Shown piece after piece: positions 18,360 to 27,049 of a stretch of 64,000 nt of DNA. The notes beneath the pieces are model-generated. The model was not told the DNA's origin. It saw nothing but the letters and a program-made list of their open reading frames with translations, and did not search any database. Source of the stretch: Escherichia phage vB_EcoM_WFL6982. Position 1 is the stretch's first letter. Each line of letters begins with the position of its first letter. The stretch lies in the sequence record MK373774.1. The stretch is one strand, 5' to 3'. The position numbers and the translations under genes are program-made.

Positions 18360-18389
18360 ATAGTATCACACATCCATGTGTTTGTAAAC
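18360..18389 (-). promoter_or_regulatory. early promoter
   Basis: gtaaac at 18384-18389, -10 around 18362-18368, conserved leader with RBS. Confidence 0.45.
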
Positions 18390-20476
18390 TATCCTTGGAC
18401 AAATTTAAACGGAACTGATTCTAAATCCATTAAAGATGCTAACAATTTCAAACCTTTAGGTGCACTAGTTTTTTCTACAAATGAAGAGAACGATACCGGC
18501 TCATCCGATTCGATTTCACCCGTCATAGCAACCACCTCGCCTGTTTCCATGAGAACATCACCATCGTAAATGACAGCTTCATCCAACTGGTCTGAGGACA
18601 TGACTTCAGCTTGAATAAATTTAAGGTTAGATTCTAAACCTGCACCAGTGTCAGATGACGCATCTGTAATTTTATTTATCTGCAAGAGAATGCCTCTAGG
18701 CAAAATAATTTCTTGCTCATTAGGGTGATTACTCAACTGTCCTGGATAAATCACGTTAACTTTATGGGCGCCGTCAATAGCCCATCCAACGTTAACACGG
18801 ATTTGTTCTGGCGCATGCATAGCGGTACGCACCAGACTAGGAGAAATAGTAACACCTTCATCATTATTGTCAATGTTAAGCTCTTTGCGAACTTCTTCAG
18901 GAGCAAGTCCAAGGGCAACGTTCTCTTTAAACCCACCGAAAATAATAGGAGCTAGTGAAGTGGAAACATAGTTTCTGAAGTAGAATACCTTATTTTTAAC
19001 CATTGCTTCGTAAATAGGCATTCTGATAGACTGAGCTCTATATAACGTTAGTCCTTCAGGTAAACGGTCTCCATTTAAAAACGCCGAATCAAGACCATCA
19101 ATAGCGCGTTTAACTTCATCTTCATCTGCAACATCGTAAAAATCTGGTTTATAACGACCTAACAACATATTATTGATATCGGTATACGCAGAAGAGGCAT
19201 ATTCACGAATAGCTCGTTTTTCAGCAACAGAGTATTGTTTAGGGTCCCGATTCATTGTTATATTAAAGGTGCCTCTAGCCGATTCTCGTGCATAAGTATA
19301 CATCACACTAGACAAGAACGCTGATTTACGTTGTTTCCAAGTTTTTTCAGATACTTCAGCTAAAACATCGTCGGCCAGTTGGAAATTATCACGTCTAAAA
19401 TCTTCAAACCATTCGTCTTTAATAGAGTCCGCAATTTCGTTTGCAGCTTCAACAAAAGCAGCTAATGCTTTAACAGATGTTGTTTTTTCAGTTTTAATTT
19501 TCTTAGCAAACTTTTCTAAAGTTGGCTTAATAACACTACCATAAGAAACTTCATCAGCAAATCTAAAGGATTCATCAATACGATTATAAATCTTATTTTC
19601 GATATCAGCAACTAAAGTGCCTTTTGCTGTGGATGATGCTTGGGCTAGTACGATTTCATATGCTTCAGGAAGTAATTCGGCTGTAGCCGGGCCACTAACT
19701 TCTTTAGCAGAATTTTCGTATTTCTGGAATAACTCACCTTCTTGGCGGTCAGCTTCTAAAGATTGGCTTGCGGCAATAGCACGACGAGAAATTTTAGTAC
19801 GAGCAATAACAGGCTTATCTTTACGTTTTTCTTCTACAGCAGCAATAGAACCGGCGATAGCCGTTTCTTTGGTGACCTTTTCGCCAGTCTTTTTACTCAC
19901 ATAAACTTCGCCAACATCAGAATCTACTTTCGCGTACAACTCTGTGTTAATGTTAGGGATGCCTTTAATATCTTCAATGTTGGCATTTTTACGAACCATC
20001 ATCACATAGGTGTGTTTACCTGTGAATTGATACATTGCCGACAATACTTTAAAACGACCACCGGTTTTAGTAGAAACTAAACGAGCAAGAAGAGTTTGAA
20101 GCTGCTGTCCACGTCCTTTCAATTTCTTGGTAGGGAATCGGAATAGAACCGCATCCATACGAAGAGCTTTAACCTGTTCATATACTGTATTGAAAATGGT
20201 GTTGATTGCATCAATAGGAGCAGGACCAAGGCCATTTTTCAATTCAGCGAGATTACCCTTTTCAGACAGACTCATAATAACAACATGAGCGTATTTGTCG
20301 CCAAGTTTAACTTGTTTTACAGCGTCGCCTTCGGAAAGGTAAGAGAATAAACGAACTACGATGTTTGTATCAACATCACCAATTTTCCAGACTTGTGGAA
20401 CTTTAGCTTTAGGGTTCAAATTGACGACAGGAAGACTGCCTTCAGATTCAAACACTTCATTTAATTGTTCAGACAT
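18389..20476 (-). CDS. alt: Alt-like ADP-ribosyltransferase (packaged head protein)
   Basis: 695 aa; C-terminal R / S-T-S / E-x-E ART triad (YRAQ, STS, EQEIILPRG); T4 position after gene 54. Confidence 0.8.
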   Translation of the reverse strand: MSEQLNEVFESEGSLPVVNLNPKAKVPQVWKIGDVDTNIVVRLFSYLSEGDAVKQVKLGDKYAHVVIMSLSEKGNLAELKNGLGPAPIDAINTIFNTVYEQVKALRMDAVLFRFPTKKLKGRGQQLQTLLARLVSTKTGGRFKVLSAMYQFTGKHTYVMMVRKNANIEDIKGIPNINTELYAKVDSDVGEVYVSKKTGEKVTKETAIAGSIAAVEEKRKDKPVIARTKISRRAIAASQSLEADRQEGELFQKYENSAKEVSGPATAELLPEAYEIVLAQASSTAKGTLVADIENKIYNRIDESFRFADEVSYGSVIKPTLEKFAKKIKTEKTTSVKALAAFVEAANEIADSIKDEWFEDFRRDNFQLADDVLAEVSEKTWKQRKSAFLSSVMYTYARESARGTFNITMNRDPKQYSVAEKRAIREYASSAYTDINNMLLGRYKPDFYDVADEDEVKRAIDGLDSAFLNGDRLPEGLTLYRAQSIRMPIYEAMVKNKVFYFRNYVSTSLAPIIFGGFKENVALGLAPEEVRKELNIDNNDEGVTISPSLVRTAMHAPEQIRVNVGWAIDGAHKVNVIYPGQLSNHPNEQEIILPRGILLQINKITDASSDTGAGLESNLKFIQAEVMSSDQLDEAVIYDGDVLMETGEVVAMTGEIESDEPVSFSSFVEKTSAPKGLKLLASLMDLESVPFKFVQG

Positions 20477-20516
20477 AGTGTTTTCCTTTTAGTAATAATT
20501 TATATTTATGCCAAAA

Positions 20517-20532
20517 AGAGCCCGAAGGCTCT
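20517..20532 (-). terminator. hairpin AGAGCC-UUCG-GGCUCU plus U-run
   Basis: Stem-loop followed by ttttt on the minus strand. Confidence 0.5.
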
Positions 20533-20720
20533 TAATCCACAATCGGAAGCAAAGTACGATAAACTTCAAAATTAGAGCCTTTTTCGTACTTATCGAAATT
20601 GTCCATAAAAATATGATAGGAATCGTTATTAGGAAAATCTAATATAATCTGAGAGCAAGAGGTGGAAACATCTCCACCATCCTTCTTAGCTACAATAACT
20701 GTTTCTAAATAAGCTTTCAT
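20532..20720 (-). CDS. hypothetical small protein
   Basis: ATG at 20720 overlaps ligase stop (TAATG); hairpin and T-run follow. Confidence 0.4.
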   Translation of the reverse strand: MKAYLETVIVAKKDGGDVSTSCSQIILDFPNNDSYHIFMDNFDKYEKGSNFEVYRTLLPIVD

Positions 20721-22213
20721 TATAAACCTGTCTGGGACCACGGTCCAAATACGTCTTCAAACGAATCCGCTTCTGTTTTATCAAAACGGAACCCTTTAAT
20801 AATTGGGAGGAAAATACCTACAGTGCCTTCACGTCCTTTAGAATGAACCCAACCATTGCATTCACAATCAGCAATACGTCCAATCAATTTACCTTCACGA
20901 GCTTCGGTCATTAATCGTTCACGGTCCAAATCATGTCGCTCATCTAAAGGAATAAGAACCTTTACACCATCAACTGTTTTATGAGTTGTATCTTTAAACC
21001 CTGAACCACAATCGGTTGTAATACGACGACAACGTGATACGAGTTCGACACCACCTAATTTGTTAGGGTCTTTAGAGTGTTCATAGTATCCTACAACTTC
21101 TAAAGCGATATCAATAACTTCTTTAAATTTAATTAGGTTCTTAGAACGTTTGTTTTCCCAATATGAATCACGGTTTTTAAGGATAATACCTTCAAGACCT
21201 TGGTCAACATATTTTTTATAAACCACTTTAGCTTCGTCAAGATTACGAACTAACTGATTTTCAATTGGCTCAATTCGTTTAAAGCCTTCAGCCATATTTT
21301 CAAGAGCAGCAAAACGAACATCGTATTTCTGACCTTTAATTTTGCCATCAGAATAGACTTCATCTAAAGGAACATAGTCCCAGGCTTGAAGAACCATACC
21401 TTCAGCTTCTTTAGGAGAAATAGTCCCTTGAAGAGATTTATTTGCTAAACCGTTTGAAGTGCTACGGTCCGCAACTTGTACTTCTTCGGATTCTTCATTA
21501 TCACCAAATAAGAACGACAGGTCATTTCCTGAGCTCACAGCCTTTTTAATATCAAATGAATGGTAAACTAATTCACCGTCGATTAAAACCCCATTAGGGT
21601 GTCTTTCACGAGCTTCTTTAGTCATTTCCATTAGTTCATCCGCTAATAGAGTAAGACCATGATATTCGTTGCCGGCACGAGAAAAGAATTGAACACCATC
21701 ATCGCGAACTTCAGCGAAACAACGAGCACCATCTGCTTTTAATTGGGCAAATGCGGGCCATTTAATATTTTTAGTAATCAATTTCTCGTCATATGCAGAT
21801 GCTAACATCTGTGGTTGCAATTGAATAAGTCCAGGCCACACCTTATTCGCGATAGACACTGAAGCACCTACTTCAAGATCGCGCATCATTACACGACGAA
21901 GGACTTCTACATCATCAGGTTTACCATCAGCGATATAACCCATGAGCTCTTTAATTGCAGCATTACCAGTGAGTTTACGAGTGGCTAATGTGAACTCAAT
22001 AAAATCCAACATGTCATCTAATTCAAGAAGACCATACGCTTGAGACCTTTCACCTGGTCCTGGCCATTTCTTAATATAATACTGGATACCACGTGCATAT
22101 GTTAAACGATACACACGTTCAAGTAATTTGTTGTCCTTATTTTTCTTAAGGATTTCCTGTTTTGTTTTAGTAGAACCAATCGCAGCTATTTGGTTTAAAA
22201 TATCTAAAATCAT
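20720..22213 (-). CDS. 30: ATP-dependent DNA ligase gp30
   Basis: 497 aa; ligase motif I KADGAR; recalled similarity to T4 DNA ligase. Confidence 0.92.
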   Translation of the reverse strand: MILDILNQIAAIGSTKTKQEILKKNKDNKLLERVYRLTYARGIQYYIKKWPGPGERSQAYGLLELDDMLDFIEFTLATRKLTGNAAIKELMGYIADGKPDDVEVLRRVMMRDLEVGASVSIANKVWPGLIQLQPQMLASAYDEKLITKNIKWPAFAQLKADGARCFAEVRDDGVQFFSRAGNEYHGLTLLADELMEMTKEARERHPNGVLIDGELVYHSFDIKKAVSSGNDLSFLFGDNEESEEVQVADRSTSNGLANKSLQGTISPKEAEGMVLQAWDYVPLDEVYSDGKIKGQKYDVRFAALENMAEGFKRIEPIENQLVRNLDEAKVVYKKYVDQGLEGIILKNRDSYWENKRSKNLIKFKEVIDIALEVVGYYEHSKDPNKLGGVELVSRCRRITTDCGSGFKDTTHKTVDGVKVLIPLDERHDLDRERLMTEAREGKLIGRIADCECNGWVHSKGREGTVGIFLPIIKGFRFDKTEADSFEDVFGPWSQTGL

Positions 22214-22479
22214 TTGATGTCCTCGATTTTGGTTACGGTTCTATTATAAGCCACTTCATCTAGAAGCGATTTCAGCGTTTTCTGATAAGTTGTAATCCAT
22301 TTACCGAGTCCTTCAACATAGTATTCTGAAATGTAGATGAACCCTTGTTCAACACACTCTTTAAATATTTCTGCGTCTTTTACTGAACGAAACAATGGCC
22401 AGTCTCGAAAGAACATGTTAACGTGACCGTAGTCACGTGTGGTATTTTTGCCATCTGTAATATCATGAACTACAAACAT
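22210..22479 (-). CDS. hypothetical protein (30.1 position)
   Basis: 89-aa ORF, overlapping stops/starts in operon. Confidence 0.5.
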   Translation of the reverse strand: MFVVHDITDGKNTTRDYGHVNMFFRDWPLFRSVKDAEIFKECVEQGFIYISEYYVEGLGKWITTYQKTLKSLLDEVAYNRTVTKIEDIK

Positions 22480-22488
22480 AATTAACCC

Positions 22489-23313
22489 TTAACAATTTAT
22501 AGACCAAGTCCATTTAGACGAATCTAAAGGAAAGTTTTGAATCGTCCACCACGGCTGCATATCAGTTGGTCCTGGGGTTCGCCAGGTATATGGAGTACGT
22601 GTTGTCGAGGGGCCACCAATTTGATTAGGCCATGCACCTGGACTTGTTGCACCAGATTCTTTAAGCAAATCCGCCAATCGTTTTAAAAGGTCTTCACGAT
22701 CTGAATCTGAATTATTCTTAGGCAGAACCAAACGAGATTCAATATCATCCCACGTGTGTACACGTTGTGCAGTACGAGGAATGGCATCACGTTCACCACG
22801 AGCCAACCAATAAATCGGTACATTAAGAATTTCTGCCGCATGGTCACAATGATGAGCTAAATCGTCAACGTAACAAATTACGTTATATTTTGTTTTAGCT
22901 AGTTCGAATAATTGTTCCTTTGAAGAATCATGACCACACATCATTACTTCAGAGAAAGCGCCTGGGAACAAAGCATTCAAATTAAATTGTCTATTCAATC
23001 GAGCATCAATTGAATCACCTAGCGCCGTCACGGCTACAAAATTATAGTCTTCTTTTAGTTTATTGATAACTCGAAGAGCATCAGAATAAGGCGCTAAGTA
23101 ACGAATAAAATCAGAGCTATTATATTTTTCTATTAATTGTTTACCAAGGTTATCGTCGGTGTTGAACAGTTTACCAGGAGAAATAAATTTTTCGTCCTGA
23201 ATCATTTTTAAAATATGTTCTAATGGAAGGTTATATTTTTGGGCAAAATAAGGAAGTCCAGATTGCCAGCTTAAACATACACCATCAATATCAGTCAAAA
23301 TAGTAGGCTTCAT
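22489..23313 (-). CDS. HAD-superfamily hydrolase-like protein (30.2 position)
   Basis: N-terminal DxDGV motif (LTDIDGV) and downstream DD motif typical of HAD phosphatases. Confidence 0.5.
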   Translation of the reverse strand: MKPTILTDIDGVCLSWQSGLPYFAQKYNLPLEHILKMIQDEKFISPGKLFNTDDNLGKQLIEKYNSSDFIRYLAPYSDALRVINKLKEDYNFVAVTALGDSIDARLNRQFNLNALFPGAFSEVMMCGHDSSKEQLFELAKTKYNVICYVDDLAHHCDHAAEILNVPIYWLARGERDAIPRTAQRVHTWDDIESRLVLPKNNSDSDREDLLKRLADLLKESGATSPGAWPNQIGGPSTTRTPYTWRTPGPTDMQPWWTIQNFPLDSSKWTWSINC

Positions 23314-23777
23314 AAAGAGTCTCTTAATAGGTTTAACACGTCAATAAATTCATCTTCAGTTAGTATTGTATCATCTTTTGTTAGGTGGCTGGCCATGCTG
23401 TGCTTCAAAATTTTTCCTTTAGAGGCTTGTAAGGCATCACGAAACCCCTTGTTTTGGATCGCGGCTTCAAAATATGCATTTGTGTATAATTCTTTCCATG
23501 CTTCGGAGTATCTTGAAAATGGAACTCCTAACCAGAAGAGAGTCCCACGGTCCTGAGCTCTTGCGTAAGACCTTCCAGCTTGCTGTGCAGCCAATCCAGA
23601 CAACCAAAATATACGTCTTTGTTGTTCAACATTTTTCACCTTACATCCTTGGAGAAATCCTTCAAGACCTCCGAATTGAATACCATCCATAACAAAAGGC
23701 CATTGAGCAAAGTTACTTAATGCACATGACGGCCATTTGAAATTACTTCTTATTTCTAATTCAGACATCTTTAACAC
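23310..23777 (-). CDS. NADAR / YbiA-like (DUF1768) domain protein
   Basis: Motif pattern LSNF..PF..DG..F...E..Q..K resembles the NADAR family. Confidence 0.45.
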   Translation of the reverse strand: MLKMSELEIRSNFKWPSCALSNFAQWPFVMDGIQFGGLEGFLQGCKVKNVEQQRRIFWLSGLAAQQAGRSYARAQDRGTLFWLGVPFSRYSEAWKELYTNAYFEAAIQNKGFRDALQASKGKILKHSMASHLTKDDTILTEDEFIDVLNLLRDSL

Positions 23778-23979
23778 TTATAATTTCAACATCAGCCCAA
23801 TGTCCGTATCCAGGTATACGGTCTTCGATAGATAAATTTCTGTCATTTTTAGGCATTTTAATTGACGTAACGTATGGTTCTAAACGGTTTTCCGCGTAAT
23901 ATGGAAAAACGTCGGTTACACGATAAGTAACTTCAATCATTTCCGTACCAAACAATTTCTGGATTAATTTATTCAACAT
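23761..23979 (-). CDS. hypothetical protein
   Basis: 72-aa ORF in the 30.x early cluster. Confidence 0.4.
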   Translation of the reverse strand: MLNKLIQKLFGTEMIEVTYRVTDVFPYYAENRLEPYVTSIKMPKNDRNLSIEDRIPGYGHWADVEIISVKDV

Positions 23980-24166
23980 GTTTCAACCCTTTAATAGGAG
24001 ATAACTCTTTACCCATACGTATGTCAGAAGTCCCATCAACCCATTGAACAGCATACGCTTCATTGATAATTCCAGCGGCAGTTTTAAATTCGTTGAGAAC
24101 TTTAAAAATCATCCCAGGGATTCCAACACCTTTTAATTGGACTGTTTGTGCTATTAAAAATTTCAT
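23969..24166 (-). CDS. hypothetical protein
   Basis: 65-aa ORF with early-promoter-like element upstream (about 24190-24221). Confidence 0.4.
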   Translation of the reverse strand: MKFLIAQTVQLKGVGIPGMIFKVLNEFKTAAGIINEAYAVQWVDGTSDIRMGKELSPIKGLKHVE

Positions 24167-24220
24167 ATTTTTCCACTTACTAAAGAAATCATTATACTCT
24201 AATCCGTCCTTGGATGTACA

Positions 24221-24835
24221 CTACTTAATGAAATTAATTTCTACCGGATGAACAACAGGTTGAGCAGTGATATATTGAGTAATTGCTTTCATGACTAGAG
24301 CTTCAGAACCAGGATTTTTCTCAACGAATTCACGTGCTAGGTTATGAGCTTCGAGTTCACTCAATAAACCGGAACGCTGGCATCCACGGTCTTGAGTACC
24401 CTGTTCAGATAAAAGGACTACTACATATTTTTCATCGTCGTAGGGCTTAGCCAGTTGAGCAAATGTTCCTTTACTTCCAAAAGGAGAGTTATGTCGCCAC
24501 ATCACGCCGTGAGGAGTTTCAACCTTCGTATATTCGTGCGGTCCATTTTTCTTAGTTTCTTGATGTGGAACTTCATAGACTTTAGGGTTAGGACATTCAA
24601 TAAAATGCTCATCTAAATCGGTCGAGAATATTAAAGTAAAACAATTACTGAATTTACCAACACCGGCCTGATAAATTTTACCTTCAGAAGTTCTAATTTC
24701 ACAAACTGAGCCGGCATCAGTAACTTCTAAAACTTCAAAAGGCTCAATAAGGTCATATGAGAACATGTTTTTAAGGCGTGGAGTAATATCCCCATTTTTA
24801 AAATTCATTTTATAAAAAGTATTAACTTTAAACAT
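24221..24835 (-). CDS. hypothetical protein
   Basis: ATG at 24835 with RBS GAGG; the track ORF start is a TTG further upstream. Confidence 0.5.
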   Translation of the reverse strand: MFKVNTFYKMNFKNGDITPRLKNMFSYDLIEPFEVLEVTDAGSVCEIRTSEGKIYQAGVGKFSNCFTLIFSTDLDEHFIECPNPKVYEVPHQETKKNGPHEYTKVETPHGVMWRHNSPFGSKGTFAQLAKPYDDEKYVVVLLSEQGTQDRGCQRSGLLSELEAHNLAREFVEKNPGSEALVMKAITQYITAQPVVHPVEINFIK

Positions 24836-24870
24836 AATTTCCTCAGTGGGAGCCGAAGCTCCCAATTAAT

Positions 24871-25236
24871 TTAGATATCAAATTCGTTAAGAACTACATC
24901 AAAGATTGCTTCGAGATGTTCAGGTTTAGCTCGGTTACTCAGGATATGACGAATCCAAGTTTTAACCAGAAGTTTACGATTAACACCATTCCAGCAAGGA
25001 TGAGTACCTAAATCACGCTGACGGAAATCATCATCTAATGCAATTTTAAAATTTGAACCTTCCATCGTGATTGAAACCGTGATACCATTTTCAAATCGCA
25101 TATAAACGTAATTAGGAGTCATGCACTGTTCGATTTCACAAACTGTACCGTTTTCGTGTTTCCATAAGCAAATAACTTCAGAAGAACCAGCAATACCGTT
25201 AGAAACATATTTACGTTCGAAGTTGGTGTAGTTCAT
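24871..25236 (-). CDS. hypothetical protein
   Basis: Internal ATG at 25236 with RBS GGAGA and early promoter at 25276-25308. Confidence 0.45.
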   Translation of the reverse strand: MNYTNFERKYVSNGIAGSSEVICLWKHENGTVCEIEQCMTPNYVYMRFENGITVSITMEGSNFKIALDDDFRQRDLGTHPCWNGVNRKLLVKTWIRHILSNRAKPEHLEAIFDVVLNEFDI

Positions 25237-25275
25237 TTTATTCTCCAGATGTTTAAGTTGTTTGTTGGTACAGGT

Positions 25276-25308
25276 CTCTATAATAACATAACCTGTACCA
25301 AAGTAAAC
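25276..25308 (-). promoter_or_regulatory. early promoter with flanking inverted repeat
   Basis: gtaaac at 25303-25308; ggtacaggt / acctgtacc inverted repeat flanks the -10. Confidence 0.45.
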
Positions 25309-25312
25309 TGTT

Positions 25313-25681
25313 TTATGCAACTTTAATCCAATTGTCTAAATTTAAAACACCTTTGGCTTTCATTTTTTCTATCAGGTTATCTGCTGTAATGCGTCCATTT
25401 TGATACCATGTAACATCTTCAGAGTAACCAGTTTCTTCGTCAACATATGTTTCTGAACGAATTTTACCGGTAATAATAGTTTTTAATTCGTATGTGTCAC
25501 CTGTGAAAAAGTTTGCTAACACAATTTTCCAAGAGAAATCATCAGAAGGACCTTCAGGGGTCATACAACCTACGAACTCAAATTGCTCTTTGTATAACAT
25601 CCACTGGAATTCTTTAATTTCGATAGCTTTATAACCATCGTGGTCTTTACATTTGATGTATGAGTTCAGATTGATTTTCAT
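25313..25681 (-). CDS. hypothetical protein
   Basis: 122-aa ORF, RBS GGAGA, early promoter at 25720-25752. Confidence 0.5.
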   Translation of the reverse strand: MKINLNSYIKCKDHDGYKAIEIKEFQWMLYKEQFEFVGCMTPEGPSDDFSWKIVLANFFTGDTYELKTIITGKIRSETYVDEETGYSEDVTWYQNGRITADNLIEKMKAKGVLNLDNWIKVA

Positions 25682-26992: not shown

Positions 26993-27049
26993 CTTATTTC
27001 CTTGTTGTTTGACGATAGATTAATAATACCATACTATTCGTAAAGCATA

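Follow-up and report, generated by a model that had tools for sequence, protein, structure and literature searches.

The stretch analysed here, 64,000 nucleotides (nt) of Escherichia phage vB_EcoM_WFL6982 (MK373774.1; hereafter the window), comes from a T4-like phage of the genus Tequatrovirus and holds two adjoining open reading frames (ORFs), one of 155 amino acids (aa) with a NADAR signature and one of 274 aa with a HAD motif, both recognisable from the raw sequence. We conclude with high confidence that the first is adfN, the orthologue of T4 gene 30.3, that the second, the orthologue of T4 gene 30.2, encodes a HAD phosphatase which is not needed for the action of AdfN against the host defence DarTG1, and that neither is mechanistically tied to the ADP-ribosyltransferase Alt encoded nearby. 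The finding is correct but already known, as AdfN is a characterised anti-DarTG1 enzyme. The first-pass annotation of this DNA had guessed that the NADAR protein counters a host ADP-ribosylating defence, which was right and had already been proven for T4 gp30.3 (PMC11825919). The NADAR fold and the anti-ADP-ribosylation role that it proposed therefore hold, while the module that it centred on Alt is not supported.

Identity, fold and function of AdfN

The 155-aa ORF (23310..23777, minus strand) begins at a GTG and matches the Pfam family PF08010 (Phage_30_3) at 230.8 bits (cut-off 36) over the whole profile (positions 1-138 of 138), so that it is not a chance ORF. Its length results from the mechanical choice of the longest ORF from GTG 23777. 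Translation probably starts instead at ATG 23768, which would give a protein of 152 aa and overlaps the stop of 30.4 by 8 nt, and the 152-aa T4 30.3 is annotated with the same overlap. Over all 152 residues, the window protein and T4 AdfN agree at 95% of positions; the neighbours of the two genes are alike, as are their overlaps with 30.4 and 30.2. The two proteins differ by seven substitutions (window>T4: K11R, W55G, E89P, I120V, M125I, H128G and D139A), none of which falls on a tested catalytic residue. The minus-strand order in the window, 30.5, 30.4, 30.3, 30.2, 30.1, 30, an alt.1-like ORF and alt, matches the annotated T4 map (30.5, 30.4, 30.3, 30.2, 30.1, 30, alt.1, alt), and because this order is kept, we assign the 155-aa and 274-aa ORFs as the orthologues of 30.3 and 30.2. 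Megablast of bases 22000-24300 gave hundreds of Tequatrovirus matches, among them Escherichia phage vB_EcoM_WFK at 100% identity; the region matches 665 phage records, whose hosts are nearly all Escherichia, Shigella and their relatives. We also noticed that the out-of-frame internal ORF 30.3' of T4, here at 23405..23632 (minus strand), is interrupted by a stop after 34 codons in spite of the close identity of 30.3, which speaks against 30.3' being a conserved coding gene.

The NADAR signature that had been noted at first pass is present as L20-S-N-F23, P27-F28, D31-G32, F35, E39, Q43 and K46 in the 155-aa numbering. In T4 numbering, which is used from here on, the catalytic Glu and Lys of the superfamily E..Q..K motif are E36 and K43, and H123 is the His on the last strand that marks the gp30.3 subfamily. 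An AlphaFold2 model built from nine homologues (predicted local distance difference test score, pLDDT, 89; predicted template modelling score, pTM, 0.84) shows the alpha+beta fold of NADAR proteins with the catalytic residues kept. The C-terminal helix is intact, in that the full-length protein aligns to the last residue of T4 gp30.3 and the model contains a helix at 141-154. This agrees with earlier work in which gp30.3 was recognised as a phage NADAR subfamily having a last-strand His, where YbiA has a Glu and BC4488/DarG1 an Asp (PMC11125620, PMC11543638). The window AdfN differs from E. coli YbiA (2b3w), an N-glycosidase of riboflavin intermediates, in the last-strand residue and in the housekeeping role of that enzyme. 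It differs from the DarG1/BC4488-type antitoxins (G. lovleyi, 8bat) and PnNADAR (8bau) as well: it lacks the N-terminal extension of DarG1, has the His in place of the DarG1 Asp and is not encoded beside a DarT, and the T4 protein, unlike the antitoxins, does not neutralise DarT1 in uninfected cells (PMC11825919).

The function is known from T4 and its relatives. Johannesman et al. (2025) identified gene 30.3, which they renamed adfN, as the source of DarTG1 resistance in T-even phages by mapping, and found that T4 or T2 deleted for adfN forms no plaques on DarTG1 cells while ectopic AdfN rescues RB69 (PMC11825919). Purified T4 AdfN strips ADP-ribose from DarT1-modified DNA, in which the modified base is guanine; the E36A protein is inactive, and both K43A and a C-terminal truncation impair the enzyme. 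In RB69, a frameshift removes the C-terminal helix and leaves a DarTG1-sensitive allele. For resistance to DarTG1, AdfN is both necessary and sufficient (PMC11825919). The HIDEN-SEQ transposon screen of T4 (control-versus-DarTG1 sheet) independently confirms the function: insertions in 30.3 are lost under DarTG1 with a log2 fold change of -7.25 and an adjusted p of 0 (bioRxiv 10.1101/2025.11.20.689424). In the window phage, the course of events would be that host DarT1 places ADP-ribose on guanine of the phage DNA and that AdfN, made during the infection, hydrolyses the N-glycosidic link of this adduct and sets ADP-ribose free. Its removal would restore replication and defeat DarTG1.

Because the window carries a full-length adfN that keeps E36, K43, H123 and the C-terminal helix, its allele should be functional and the phage DarTG1-resistant; the RB69-type frameshift is not present. 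Identity, fold and residues were read from the window itself and the activity and phenotype are those of the T4 orthologue, and we infer from their sequence agreement that the two alleles behave alike.

The HAD protein gp30.2 and its relation to AdfN

The HAD DxDGV motif reported earlier for the 274-aa ORF (22489..23313, minus strand) was found at its N-terminus: the protein starts MKPTILTDIDGV, which places the motif residues at D8-I-D10-G-V. Its match to phrog_420 reaches 262 bits, so that it is no chance ORF either, and it is 72% identical to T4 gp30.2, the HAD core being roughly 85-90% identical while the C-terminal tail has almost wholly diverged. The four HAD motifs, DxDx[TV], S/T, K/R and DD, correspond to D8-I-D10-G-V, T96, K132 and D150-D151. 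Across 44 aligned homologues, D8, D10 and K132 never vary, T96, D150 and D151 hardly do, and much of the stretch separating motifs I and II is highly conserved as well. The predicted structure consists of a Rossmannoid HAD core and a cap, with pLDDT >89 over residues 1-190 and <50 over 223-274. The cap is of the C1 type, formed by ~80 helical residues between the first two core strands.

The best match of gp30.2 among PDB sequences is the mitochondrial 5'(3')-deoxyribonucleotidase, in which DIDGVCLSWQSGL is aligned with NMDGVLADFESGL, and its viral structure neighbours in BFVD outside the 30.2 family are often annotated as 5' nucleotidases. Compared with the 5'(3')-deoxyribonucleotidases of the NT5C family (PF06941; human mdN and cdN; S. 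epidermidis 3bwv), gp30.2 has an additional disordered tail of 50-90 residues, which is unalignable between homologues and missing from ~200-aa family members and many homologues. From the motifs and the model, we judge gp30.2 to be a catalytically competent C1-capped HAD phosphomonoesterase that resembles NT5C, and we infer that it most likely acts on a nucleoside monophosphate or a related small phospho-sugar. Our literature search found no paper mentioning gp30.2. T4 gene 30.2 is non-essential on K-12, and the published screens report no phenotype for it.

Under DarTG1, T4 insertions in 30.2 were neutral (log2 fold change -0.12, p 0.61, 71 sites), and the values for 30.1 and alt were both -0.01, alt being neutral (bioRxiv 10.1101/2025.11.20.689424). 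In the same comparison, insertions in 30.4 were depleted (-1.79, adjusted p 0.014) and those in 30.5 gave -3.0, which is not significant. The depletion of 30.4 is probably caused by polarity on adfN, which would imply co-transcription, and 30.4 and 30.5 are probably co-transcribed with adfN; 30.4 may nevertheless have a direct role.

Several observations weigh against our reading of the two genes. The first concerns the family models. The 155-aa protein has no match to the NADAR family PF08719 at E <= 0.1. In addition, it has no NCBIfam match and a phmmer search of the PDB finds no NADAR protein. Among 77 PF08010 relatives, the longer members of the profile-search set, 12 also match PF08719, the cases shown all lying below its 35.1-bit cut-off, and the NADAR assignment of the window protein thus goes through the predicted fold and these bridging sequences. 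Similarly, gp30.2 falls below the Pfam HAD gathering score (HAD_2, 16 bits against a cut-off of 23.8) and has no match to the NT5C family PF06941, which six of 44 relatives match weakly (best E-value 0.002); the 30.2 family is too diverged for the curated HAD models. As the window proteins are below the Pfam thresholds for NADAR, HAD_2 and NT5C, their fold assignments rest on models and conserved motifs. Second, the DarTG1 sheet of the transposon data was recognised by its position after the RnlAB sheet and by the -7.25 of 30.3, with no printed header seen. Third, the ATGA overlap between 30.3 and 30.2, the conserved gene order and the NADAR::NT5C fusion proteins described below hint that the two genes may cooperate in a condition that has not been screened. 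The overlap in itself makes translational coupling of 30.3 and 30.2 plausible.

The fusion proteins came from the wider family of AdfN. When 1.84 billion representative proteins were searched with its profile, 1361 relatives were returned (50%-identity clusters, E <= 0.001). Among the PF08010 relatives scanned (P0119-P0264), some lie on large bacterial contigs and some are fused to LRR_5, ASCH, HD_4, GDSL lipase, LGT or FtsW-like domains; the family is therefore large and not confined to T4-like phages. In P0182, a gp30.3-type NADAR domain that keeps the His is followed by an NT5C domain, and P0354 is a likewise fused example; the HAD domains of such fusions were found by motif search and Pfam. 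The 120 best homologues of P0182 all carry PF08010 and PF06941 and belong mostly to Bacteroidales genomes, in which the fusion family (P0182, P0265-P0383) is abundant, notably in Prevotella and Bacteroidaceae. These are single polypeptides encoded in bacterial chromosomes, and their domain order is that of phage 30.3 and 30.2. Three contigs of metagenome and genome origin (L119:4908-6984, L123:3904-5990 and L125:1245-5993) gave their gene contexts: in two of them the fusion gene stands after ADP_ribosyl_GH and before relA/spoT, with SIR2 nearby in one of the two, and in the third a TIR_2 protein is encoded nearby. No mention of a NADAR::NT5C fusion was found in the literature search.

These fusions, which mirror the pairing of 30.3 and 30.2, are a modest lead, and they raise the possibility that the two phage genes are a split form of the bacterial enzyme, their products working one after the other on a substrate (ADP-ribosylated or a ribosyl-phosphate) besides or instead of DarT1-modified DNA. 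The uniform domain pair and its order, the ADP_ribosyl_GH and SIR2 or TIR genes beside the fusions, and a motif I extension of the NT5C type, [FW]QSGL, common to gp30.2 and the fusion HAD domain are consistent with this. However, the HAD domains are only remotely related. Aligned with hhalign, the gp30.2 profile and the fusion HAD domain reach a probability of 63% over 67 columns, and the gp30.2 hidden Markov model does not detect the fusions, having no matches among 146 NADAR-family representatives. Moreover, 30.3 and 30.2 are not adjacent in half of the loci, and 30.2 is without a phenotype in the published screens. We therefore regard a split enzyme as unlikely. We give still less credence to its explicit form, in which AdfN would cleave a ribosyl N-glycosidic bond and gp30.2 would dephosphorylate the released or a related nucleotide or ribosyl-phosphate, as a guard against an ADP-ribosylating defence other than DarTG1 or one derived from nicotinamide adenine dinucleotide (NAD). 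Overall, the link between HAD and NADAR draws some comparative support from the fusion proteins, but 30.2 is dispensable for the sole known phenotype of 30.3.

Another possibility is that gp30.2 is a 3'-phosphatase of DNA ends, like PNKP, that prepares nicks for the neighbouring ligase. No other gene is linked to 30.2 as tightly as that of the ligase, its most constant neighbour, which lies just downstream in 72 of 77 viral loci. The 30.2 gene is conserved, non-essential in the laboratory, and keeps its place beside DNA ligase in nearly all T4-like phages. This linkage may, however, be core-genome synteny, and the ~80-residue helical cap between motifs I and II speaks for a different class of enzyme: C1 caps typify small-molecule HAD phosphatases, whereas phosphatases of the PNKP type are capless. 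The higher-scoring matches of gp30.2 are likewise small-molecule phosphatases, and T4 already has PseT. A role in DNA-end repair is thus improbable, and we retain the NT5C-like phosphomonoesterase.

The same 77 loci were inspected for NADAR genes. In 37 of them, 30.2 is closely preceded by a gp30.3-type NADAR gene in the same orientation; these include distant T4-like phages whose NADAR is 36-48% identical. The other 40 have no NADAR gene within 4 kb. In several T4-like genomes of ~160-167 kb, assembled as IMG/VR contigs (L021/L090, L038/L091 and L029/L065), roughly 50-90 kb separate NADAR from 30.2. Judged from these genomes, the NADAR gene has moved or been independently acquired within the T4-like group.

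Full activity of AdfN(T4) is confined to infection by T-even phages: the protein fails in uninfected cells as well as during infection by T5 or Bas25, and a T-even helper protein was postulated to account for this (PMC11825919). That gp30.2 is this helper, as the ATGA overlap, the 37 paired loci and the order of the fusions could suggest, is very hard to maintain and was rejected: 30.2 insertions are not depleted under DarTG1 (-0.12 against -7.25 for 30.3), AdfN alone is active in vitro (PMC11825919), 40 loci have 30.2 with no NADAR gene close by, and in other genomes the two genes are far apart. From the transposon data, gp30.2 is not the helper that AdfN requires against DarTG1, and any cooperation between them would belong to some other condition.

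Alt and the neighbourhood of the 30.x genes

The first-pass annotation placed the NADAR and HAD genes downstream of DNA ligase in one early operon that ends in alt. Since the genes are on the minus strand, they are in fact upstream of the ligase in the direction of transcription, and a single operon is doubtful because a hairpin and a late-promoter-like box precede alt. The hairpin, AAGAGCC-TTCG-GGCTCTT followed by a T run (20533..20513, minus strand), lies between the alt.1-like ORF and alt, and TATAAATT (20504..20497, minus strand; read with CATAAATA) is found 20 nt ahead of the alt ATG at 20476. A consensus terminator scan did not call this hairpin and an exact late-promoter search (TATAAATA) found none upstream of alt, so that the assignment of the two elements as a terminator and a T4 late promoter of alt is suggestive only.

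It had also been proposed that NADAR, HAD and Alt form one set for handling ADP-ribose or NAD, in which the first two would edit, reverse or clean up the ADP-ribosylations made by Alt. The three genes share one strand and a span of about 5 kb, alt is within the 4-kb flank of 56 of the 77 loci carrying 30.2, and T4-like NADARs were reported to be expressed early along with ADP-ribosyltransferases (Iyer et al. 2022, PMC9503650), a context which is therefore already published. The functional tie is nevertheless unsupported. The demonstrated substrate of AdfN is guanine-ADP-ribose in DNA made by host DarT1 (PMC11825919), insertions in alt have a neutral outcome under DarTG1, Alt is, according to a T4 annotation note, packaged and delivered into the host along with the infecting DNA, and the hairpin and box divide alt from the upstream genes. 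In addition, the viral loci with a gp30.3-type NADAR have alt nearby in just 19 of 41 cases and the ligase in 20 of 41. Because alt accompanies this fraction of the NADAR loci and NADAR is missing from 40 of the 77 loci with 30.2, we attribute the proximity of NADAR and Alt to synteny of the T4 core, and a common set with Alt has, in our view, hardly any likelihood. The transposon screen links Alt instead to the evasion of Mokosh type I, separate from DarTG1 (bioRxiv 10.1101/2025.11.20.689424).

Features of the adfN region in the window (positions in nt of the window)
Feature	Position	Strand	Remarks
30.5-like ORF	23969..24166	-	phrog_1690 (30.4/30.5 pair: phrog_2042 + phrog_1690); T4 gene order
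30.4-like ORF	23761..23979	-	phrog_2042 (30.4/30.5 pair: phrog_2042 + phrog_1690); T4 gene order
30.4 and 30.5 orthologues together	23761..24166	-	upstream of adfN, overlapping adfN
adfN (T4 30.3 orthologue), NADAR-fold DNA ADP-ribosylglycohydrolase, 152 aa	23310..23768	-	longest ORF reaches GTG 23777 (155 aa)
Glu codon E36 (T4 numbering), GAA	23663..23661	-	read directly; invariant in family
Lys codon K43 (T4 numbering), AAG	23642..23640	-	read directly
His123 codon, CAC	23402..23400	-	read directly; invariant in family alignment
ATGA overlap, 30.3 stop/30.2 start	23310..23313	-	read directly; same in T4
T4 gene 30.2 orthologue, 274 aa, predicted C1-capped HAD phosphatase (NT5C-like) with C-terminal tail	22489..23313	-	
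Disordered Trp/Pro-rich hypervariable tail of gp30.2, residues 223-274	22492..22647	-	pLDDT <50
30.1 orthologue (DUF3045)	22210..22479	-	PF11243, 92.8 bits
Gene 30, ATP-dependent DNA ligase	20720..22213	-	PF01068
alt.1-like ORF, 69 aa	between ligase and alt	-	
Hairpin and T run, then TATAAATT	20497..20533	-	read by eye; 7-of-8 or rule-edge matches
alt, ADP-ribosyltransferase	18389..20476	-	PF03496, 99 bits; context only, outside the AdfN mechanism

Beyond 30.5, a 214-aa ORF (phrog_17531) and a 149-aa ORF (24221..25320, minus strand) take the place of T4 30.6. The 214-aa ORF was present in just one of the related loci fetched, which marks a variable slot in the 30.x cluster. In the gap ahead of 30.5, we found a sigma-70-like sequence, TGTACA-18-TATAAT, at 24220..24191. 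A search for the MotA box found no middle-promoter-like site inside the 30.x cluster; the window holds 10 copies of the pattern where chance would give 2.0, and one such site, TGCTTTA-12-TATTAT (27047..27023, minus strand), lies immediately upstream of gene 31.

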